A stretch of 64,000 nucleotides of DNA from the sequence record OQ718158.1; one strand, given 5' to 3'. The notes under the pieces were generated by a model, which worked only from the letters and a program-made list of their open reading frames with translations, was not told where the DNA came from and made no database searches. Position numbers and translations under genes: made by a program. The DNA is from Escherichia phage vB_Ec-M-J. Below are positions 2,515 to 2,602 of this stretch, in pieces; position 1 is the first letter of the stretch, and every line of letters starts with the position of its first letter.

Positions 2515-2602
2515 CAAAAAGCGGCATCGCAAGGTGCGAGGTGAAACTTCCGATTTCCACCGCTGGTCGATTCGATTTCGACATGCCGCTCAAAATTTAC
2601 AT

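Follow-up and report, generated by a model that had tools for sequence, protein, structure and literature searches.

A strongly conserved tRNA-Gly(UCC)-like gene with a miniature D hairpin at the upstream edge of a tRNA cluster in Asteriusvirus-type jumbo coliphages

The α2β2 GlyRS of Escherichia coli recognizes its tRNA by U73, the first three acceptor pairs, C35 and C36, and U73 is the discriminator of bacterial tRNA-Gly (PMC9908026). All of these determinants are present in the E. coli gene glyT (G1:C72, C2:G71, G3:C70, U73, C35 and C36), the sequence of which was confirmed by matches of 100% identity in over 5,400 genomes. This gene further has the T loop TTCGATT, a normal U8-C9 connector, an 8-nt D loop, the anticodon loop CUUCCAA (with A37) and an encoded CCA. 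The phages 121Q and PBECO4 carry a tRNA-Gly(UCC) of their own (121Q gene 119), a 73-nt canonical cloverleaf that is matched by ARAGORN at default settings. In addition, tRNA-shaped modules are freed from longer transcripts in the case of mascRNA and of the tRNA-like small RNAs of the phage T4 cluster; they do not necessarily decode, and they generally lack a proper anticodon loop or synthetase identity set. A different departure from the canonical tRNA is found in human mt-tRNA-Ser(UGA), in which deletion of A9 moves the D arm up by one layer, the shortened D loop reaches a canonical T loop, and one extra pair in the anticodon stem compensates, resulting in a non-canonical L-shape (PMC10412605).

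We analysed a stretch of 64,000 nucleotides of Escherichia phage vB_Ec-M-J (sequence record OQ718158.1), referred to here as the window. The window is of the Asteriusvirus type of jumbo coliphages, and its positions 1900-3400 are 99.5% identical to phage BF17. Between an ORF and a consensus promoter it contains a 71-nt element that is very probably a tRNA-like gene of the UCC-glycine kind. The neighbouring genes are all on the + strand, and since five tRNA genes detected by both ARAGORN and Rfam lie just downstream, the element is the first member of a tRNA cluster, at its upstream edge. The parts of the element and its surroundings are as follows:

2303-2514, + strand: upstream ORF, with its stop codon 6 nt 5' of the element
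2521-2591, + strand: tRNA-Gly(UCC)-like gene, whole, 71 nt including the discriminator T2590 and C2591
2521-2527, + strand: 5' strand of the acceptor stem (GCGGCAT), pairing with 2583-2589
2528-2538, + strand: miniature D hairpin CGCA/TGCG (2528-2531 with 2535-2538), loop AGG at 2532-2534
2540-2561, + strand: anticodon arm with a 7-bp stem (2540-2546 with 2554-2556 and 2558-2561; C2557 bulged)
2547-2553, + strand: 7-nt anticodon loop CTTCCGA, anticodon TCC (UCC, glycine) at 2549-2551
2562-2565, + strand: variable region GCTG, 4 nt
2566-2582, + strand: T arm, stem GTCGA/TCGAC (2566-2570 with 2578-2582), loop TTCGATT at 2571-2577
2583-2589, + strand: 3' strand of the acceptor stem (ATGCCGC)
2590, + strand: discriminator T (U73)
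2602-2630, + strand: sigma-70-type promoter of the next gene (TTGACA-17-TATAAT, 12/12 matches, TG before the second hexamer)
3423-3512, + strand: tRNA-Ser(tga)
starting at 5332: tRNA-Ser(gct)
starting at 5575: tRNA-Met
5658-5731, + strand: tRNA-Asn, trailer G-CAAAA, no encoded CCA
6770-6842, + strand: tRNA-Thr, trailer T-CAAAA, no encoded CCA

The upper half of the element is that of a tRNA. The 7-bp acceptor stem and the 5-bp T stem are contiguous and are followed by the unpaired T2590, an arrangement that is intact in the three sequence variants available, with 7/7 acceptor pairs retained. The T loop matches the T54-Psi55-C56-R57-A58 consensus, and its closing pair 53:61 is A:U rather than G:C. 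A preliminary description of this DNA had reported a 7-bp GCGGCAT/ATGCCGC closing stem and a T-loop-like stretch. The stem is indeed present (the quoted 69-nt string occupies 2521-2589 on the + strand), and the stretch turned out to belong to a complete T arm. The 3' end does not encode CCA and continues with the trailer T-CAAAA; this N-CAAAA arrangement without CCA is shared by the tRNA-Asn and tRNA-Thr of the window and by the 121Q tRNA-Gly. The G+C content of the element (57.7%, against 35% for the window) stands out in the manner common to tRNA genes of AT-rich phages.

The central part is less regular. The D hairpin directly abuts the acceptor stem, leaving a connector (positions 8-9) of 0 nt, and consists of a stem of 3-4 bp and a GG-containing loop of 3-5 nt. 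Measured against a canonical D arm (U8 plus N9, a loop of 7-11 nt, A14, G18G19 and A21), GG is present and U8, A14 and A21 are absent. A single unpaired A separates the D hairpin from the anticodon arm, the stem of which (GGTGAAA/TTT(C)CACC) is lengthened to 7 bp by two extra pairs; ARAGORN draws an alternative stem of 4 bp plus a mismatch. The anticodon loop, C-U-UCC-G-A, fits the rule of Y32, U33 and R37.

All six of the GlyRS identity elements (G1:C72, C2:G71, G3:C70, U73, C35 and C36) are found in the element, which also shares the T loop TTCGATT with glyT. The acceptor stems of the two are similar (GCGGGCA in glyT, GCGGCAT in the element). In contrast to glyT, however, the element lacks a normal U8-C9 connector, an 8-nt D loop and an encoded CCA, and position 37 is A in glyT but G in the element and in the other two phage alleles described below. 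With the 121Q tRNA-Gly(UCC) the element has in common the genomic neighbourhood, the loop CTTCCGA, the discriminator U and the C-AAAA trailer without CCA. Yet the canonical 121Q gene differs in having neither a miniature D hairpin, nor a missing connector, nor a 7-bp anticodon stem, and its acceptor stem (GCAGGTA), its D arm with a stem of 4 bp and a loop of 10 nt, and its T arm (GGGGTTCAAATCCCC) show no sequence relationship to those of the element. The pattern of mt-tRNA-Ser(UGA/UCN) is seen more strongly here, with a connector reduced from 2 to 0 nt, a D loop of 3-5 nt and an anticodon stem extended by 2 bp. The mitochondrial tRNA is organellar, is served by dedicated mitochondrial enzymes, has another identity and has no evolutionary relationship to the element, so that the likeness is one of working principle, as judged from secondary structure. 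Unlike the T4 tRNA-like RNAs and mascRNA, the element has both an anticodon loop and a synthetase identity set.

Standard searches respond only weakly to the element. ARAGORN missed it at default settings and at a 95% threshold, called tRNA-Gly(tcc) at 2521-2591 at a threshold of 90% (-ps90), and labelled it a D-loop-type tRNA-Gly in mitochondrial mode. At 90%, first-order Markov sequence yields a background of 0.5 hits per 64 kb, and four extra hits were obtained in the window, of which two (at 2521 and 3517) lie inside the tRNA cluster. The other two, a Gln-ctg call at 10644-10726 on the - strand and a call with a 4-base anticodon at 37554-37654 on the + strand, are to be read against the same expectation of about 0.5 chance hits per 64 kb. 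The Rfam check named in the preliminary description gave no support at gathering scores: a scan of the whole window returned only the five known tRNAs, and in a local scan no match of the tRNA clan reached its gathering score at the element (29 bits for RF00005). In the local E-value scan, the sole match listed after clan competition was tRNA-Sec (RF01852), with 18.9 bits and E = 0.13. We rejected this identity, because the score falls far below the gathering score of 47 and tRNA-Sec requires an 8/5 or 9/4 acceptor/T geometry, a 6-bp D stem, a long variable arm and a UCA anticodon, whereas the element has a 7/5 geometry, a 4-nt variable region and a UCC anticodon. Because its D arm departs from the canonical one and its scores remain below the thresholds, the element should not be filed as a member of the canonical tRNA family.

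Folding against shuffled controls, which that description also named, came out only moderately better than chance. For the 86-nt stretch the folding energy is -26.5 kcal/mol (z = -2.4), a value that 2 of 200 shuffles attained. The minus strand folds equally well (z = -2.7) because it is simply the complement of the + strand; the T loop, the anticodon-loop rules and the direction of the neighbouring genes and tRNAs all favour the + strand, and we discarded a minus-strand reading. In the partition function, pair probabilities are about 1.0 throughout the acceptor and T stems, except for the two innermost acceptor pairs (0.88 and 0.55), and are 0.97-1.0 in the T arm. They are 0.37-0.56 for the D hairpin and 0.34-0.57 for the D hairpin and anticodon arm together. 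The central part is thus split between the cloverleaf (-24.3 kcal/mol) and the minimum free energy structure (-25.4 kcal/mol), a long irregular central hairpin that is 1.1 kcal/mol more stable and destroys the 7-nt anticodon loop. As folding energy alone is only mildly unusual, the case is carried by comparative evidence.

Among nine close genomes with homologous flanks, none of the 71 columns of the element is variable. In the same genomes, variable columns number 78 of 394 for the upstream ORFs, 12 of 74 for the promoter and 5' UTR, and 27 of 198 for the downstream ORF, which amounts to 117 of 666 (17.6%) for the pooled flanks and to about 14-20% by region. At the pooled rate, the probability of finding no variable column in 71 is roughly 1e-6, a rough estimate that ignores phylogeny. 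Comparison with phage A4 and with the metagenome contig L142 further indicates that the boundaries of conservation match those of the tRNA and of no ORF, and the element persists, sharply delimited, in three genomic contexts that are unrelated to one another. The A4 copy differs from that of the window by three substitutions, all of which preserve pairing: the first T-stem pair changed on both sides from G-C to U-A, a compensatory change, and the outermost anticodon-stem pair changed from G-C to G-U, as it did in L142. In the L142 copy, one inserted nucleotide also bulges the T stem. Covariation statistics are without power here because only three distinct sequences exist (the observed score was reached by 170 of 500 shuffles). 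Judging from these alignments, the element is under strong purifying selection.

The comparison set consisted of 34 phage records that share the 1.5-kb region, each of which carries exactly one of three UCC alleles. The canonical 73-nt tRNA-Gly(tcc), found by ARAGORN at default settings and annotated in many records, is present in 23 of the 34 (for example 121Q, PBECO4, E9.1, JP4 and Sharanji). The element occurs at 96% identity or more in ten records (BF17, fEgEco12, EC.P1, CMSTMSU, Turkey3, WPEC3, WPEC5, Ecwhy_1, ph0011 and A4). The remaining record, TH47 (labelled UNVERIFIED; L178, positions 1973-2040), has a 68-nt short-D allele unique to it, with only 14 nt separating the acceptor stem from the anticodon stem and with the loop CTTCCGA, which ARAGORN detects at 90% only. 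Hence, the element and the canonical tRNA-Gly(UCC) are mutually exclusive across the 34 genomes. The acceptor, D and T arms of the three alleles are completely different, and the anticodon-loop 10-mer ACTTCCGATT is common to all.

The three alleles occupy the same slot. In A4, both flanks are unrelated to those of the window, and the element is the sole match of A4 to a 1.5-kb megablast query. It lies directly after a gene-118-like ORF, which is the slot of the tRNA-Gly in 121Q; A4, 121Q and TH47 share the end of this ORF and about 20 nt, after which the three different alleles follow. In the window, the ORF at 2303-2514 is a homolog of 121Q gene 120 according to the annotation of the Ecwhy_1 record, and the N-termini read from the sequences are alike. 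The preliminary description had placed the element directly upstream of a promoter. This is correct for the window, with its consensus promoter at 2602-2630, but the adjacency is not intrinsic to the element: A4 and L142 have other sequence downstream, yet promoter-like sequence can be read there too, and in 121Q the canonical allele directly precedes the next ORF.

None of the deposited records that we inspected annotates the element as a tRNA. For fEgEco12, six tRNAs were reported (two Ser, Met, Asn and two Thr) and no glycine tRNA was mentioned; a search of the same paper for a phage-encoded tRNA nucleotidyltransferase, RNA ligase or synthetase found none (PMC13070987). Likewise, BF17 was reported with six tRNAs, and a glycine tRNA was not mentioned (PMC10059673). 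BLAST found no match to the element in 5,426 E. coli genomes, which indicates that it was not recently copied from a host gene. Searching for related loci with the gene-118-like protein yielded a single locus, on a 348,532-bp IMG/VR contig. Scans of IMG/VR with three patterns returned 51, 0 and 5 loci, all of them chance matches on inspection, and a T-arm/acceptor pattern scanned against GTDB genomes gave one match, also by chance, in a Pyrinomonadaceae MAG. A metagenome scan returned at least 120 loci; among the matches listed, L142 was the only true homolog, L068 and L139 were unrelated canonical tRNA-Gly genes, and the rest was noise. On the 1,632-bp contig L142, the element lies within a tRNA cluster; a tRNA-Leu(taa) ends 36 nt ahead of it, and a promoter follows.

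Taken together, we put the probability that the element serves as a functional, structurally non-canonical glycine tRNA(UCC) at roughly 0.6. It would be transcribed by read-through from the upstream early genes; no promoter was identified upstream of the element, and no terminator separates it from its neighbours. The host RNase P would then cut the 5' end, with the perfect 12-bp acceptor/T-arm stack and the canonical T loop as its substrate. By analogy with general tRNA biology, trimming would follow at the 3' end, where the CCA-adding enzyme would supply the CCA that the gene does not encode. The preliminary description, which suggested a processing site or small RNA, was right insofar as this is a small-RNA gene with a putative RNase P and 3' trimming site, and it overlooked the tRNA-Gly(UCC)-like nature of the element. 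The released product would be an RNA of 70-75 nt with all known E. coli GlyRS determinants and a normal 7-nt UCC loop, most likely the glycine tRNA with which the phage reads GGA and GGG, provided that it is charged and decodes as predicted. In this way, the element may do the work of the canonical tRNA-Gly(UCC) found at this locus in sister phages. Counting the layers of secondary structure, and following the same logic of compensation as in mitochondrial tRNA-Ser(UGA), an L-shape of normal dimensions is plausible.

Codon usage is in line with such a role. In the long ORFs of the window, GGA occurs 16.2 times per 1000 codons and makes up 20% of the Gly codons, about twice the typical usage in E. 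coli, and an excess of GGA relative to the host is the classic rationale for a phage-borne tRNA-Gly(UCC). Against full tRNA function stand the absence or displacement of U8, A14, A21 and a normal D loop, which are near-universal in bacterial elongator tRNAs, and the replacement of G53:C61 by A:U. The slightly greater stability of the competing central fold, the bulged T stem of L142 and the failure of both curated detectors count against it too. Moreover, we know of no bacterial translation system that uses a tRNA of this architecture.

These deviations could alternatively point to a tRNA-derived RNA that is excised by RNase P and 3' processing and does not decode, a possibility that we regard as doubtful but worth serious consideration. 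Such an RNA would be a poor substrate for GlyRS, EF-Tu or the ribosome. It would either punctuate the transcript, by separating the upstream mRNA of an early polycistronic transcript from the downstream promoter unit, or it could act as a nuclease decoy or antidote, as bait for a host nuclease that recognizes the anticodon loop of tRNA-Gly(UCC). RNase P and the CCA-adding enzyme need just the top half of a tRNA, and it is this half (acceptor and T arm) that is perfect in the element, whereas the D/core region is non-canonical and poorly determined. The failure of tRNA models on the element and the tolerance of a T-stem bulge in the L142 copy point in the same direction, and strong conservation is equally compatible with a non-decoding role. 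There is also a precedent, in that passages of three papers show or argue that phage tRNAs counter anticodon nucleases (PMC10264068, PMC11464382, PMC11555353); we did not come across a nuclease specific for tRNA-Gly(UCC), however. Furthermore, a pure processing signal needs no GlyRS identity set, U33, 7-nt loop or UCC anticodon, and strict exclusivity with the canonical tRNA-Gly(UCC) over 34 genomes would not be expected of it. Retention of the GlyRS set together with this exclusivity is readily explained by decoding or synthetase recognition and by nothing else that is obvious to us, which argues against a non-decoding role.

The aberrant D arm, the failure of the detectors and the lack of a tRNA annotation in the deposited records inspected are also what would be seen if the element were a functionless, decaying pseudogene of a damaged canonical tRNA-Gly. 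We consider this very improbable, since a pseudogene should not be invariant next to coding sequence in which 14-20% of the columns vary, should not be kept with sharp boundaries in unrelated contexts, and should not restrict its substitutions to those that preserve pairing; no match to it was found in E. coli genomes either, and the element is not a damaged 121Q allele because the acceptor, D and T arms all differ. The readings that we find least credible explain the element as a GC-rich hairpin that arose by chance, as an intrinsic terminator, or as a segment of a small ORF (of 34 codons on the + strand or 40 on the minus strand). With an ORF ending just ahead of it and a promoter following, its position is like that of the terminators at 359-381 and 8758-8784, and the preliminary description placed it where the cassette hairpin would be, while calling it far more elaborate. 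It is no elaborate form of a terminator hairpin, as the trailer TCAAAATTTACATTG has no T-run and the site is absent from the output of the terminator scan. As for small ORFs, WPEC3 annotates a 34-codon CDS across the element (L180, 1537-1641), and the minus strand of the window has a listed ORF of 40 codons at 2511-2633. Both look spurious: the WPEC3 CDS crosses the 3' half of the element and the 12/12 promoter, its 3' part is not conserved in A4 and L142, and the limits of conservation are those of the tRNA rather than of any ORF.

If the element is functional, phage tRNA inventories are incomplete, with ten deposited Asteriusvirus genomes missing it, and bacterial translation accepts tRNAs with a core far from the canonical D arm. 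This would be of relevance to tRNA structural biology, to the design of orthogonal tRNAs, and to the arms race between phage and host over tRNA cleavage. The clean partition of three alleles at one locus offers a natural experiment. Should the RNA turn out not to be charged, the element would still be a strongly conserved tRNA-like processing unit or decoy that is worth annotating. More speculatively, and in our view unlikely, the E. coli translation machinery uses a phage glycine tRNA with a mitochondria-like D arm, the core and G37 of which were selected to escape tRNA-targeting nucleases. These nucleases would be host defence enzymes that recognize the canonical D arm, elbow or anticodon loop. 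If so, this would to our knowledge be the first natural functional elongator tRNA with a reduced core that works with bacterial GlyRS, EF-Tu and ribosomes, and the independent short-D UCC allele of TH47 would mark the same slot as a hotspot of innovation.

Several other features of the tRNA cluster deserve mention. The tRNA-Ser(tga) at 3423-3512 differs from its counterparts in L002, L004 and L005 by compensatory swaps in the anticodon stem (ACGGT/ACCGT, CTTGT/ACAAG, CTAGT/ACTAG), and these replacements provide a positive control for the evolution of functional tRNAs in this phage group. Only 4 nt downstream lies a weak tRNA (3517-3598, + strand) that was missed by ARAGORN at default settings and by the whole-window Rfam scan at gathering scores, and that scored 32.6 bits on RF00005 in a local scan (gathering score 29). 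Its 'anticodon' arm has 4 bp and a 6-nt loop; it is annotated as tRNA-Leu(taa) in 121Q and called Asp(atc) by ARAGORN -ps90. The sequence is identical in 121Q, A4 and BF17, and ph0011 has a different sequence at this site, annotated as tRNA-Arg. In the tRNA-Thr, the T loop TGCAATT has a G instead of a U at position 55.

Amid the tRNA genes, four ORFs of about 54-56 codons on the + strand (2121-2291, 3620-3784, 3781-3945 and 3942-4106) all begin with MTH(K/E)EW, and three of them are arranged in tandem with 4-nt overlaps. The region 4536-4932 (+ strand), 3' of a promoter at 4537-4565, is 82-89% conserved in the diverged contig L142. It has no Rfam match, folds with z = -1.7 and overlaps only a weak 69-codon ORF with a GTG start (4641-4850). 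A non-coding RNA and a small gene are both conceivable.

Finally, the 10-mer TTCAGTACTG, with the palindromic core CAGTACTG, has 101 copies in the window at no more than one mismatch, against 5.7 expected, and none of 100 shuffles reached this number. Copies are found, for example, at 4128-4137, 4549-4558, 5309-5318, 6258-6267, 6378-6387 and 8557-8566, and a further copy (2473-2482) is situated some 40 nt 5' of the element. The 10-mer is located inside the spacer of several consensus promoters (TTGACTAAATAGTTCAGTACTG[T/A]TATAAT), is repeated in the form GTATTCAGTACTGAAT around 6256-6500, and occurs within coding regions as well.
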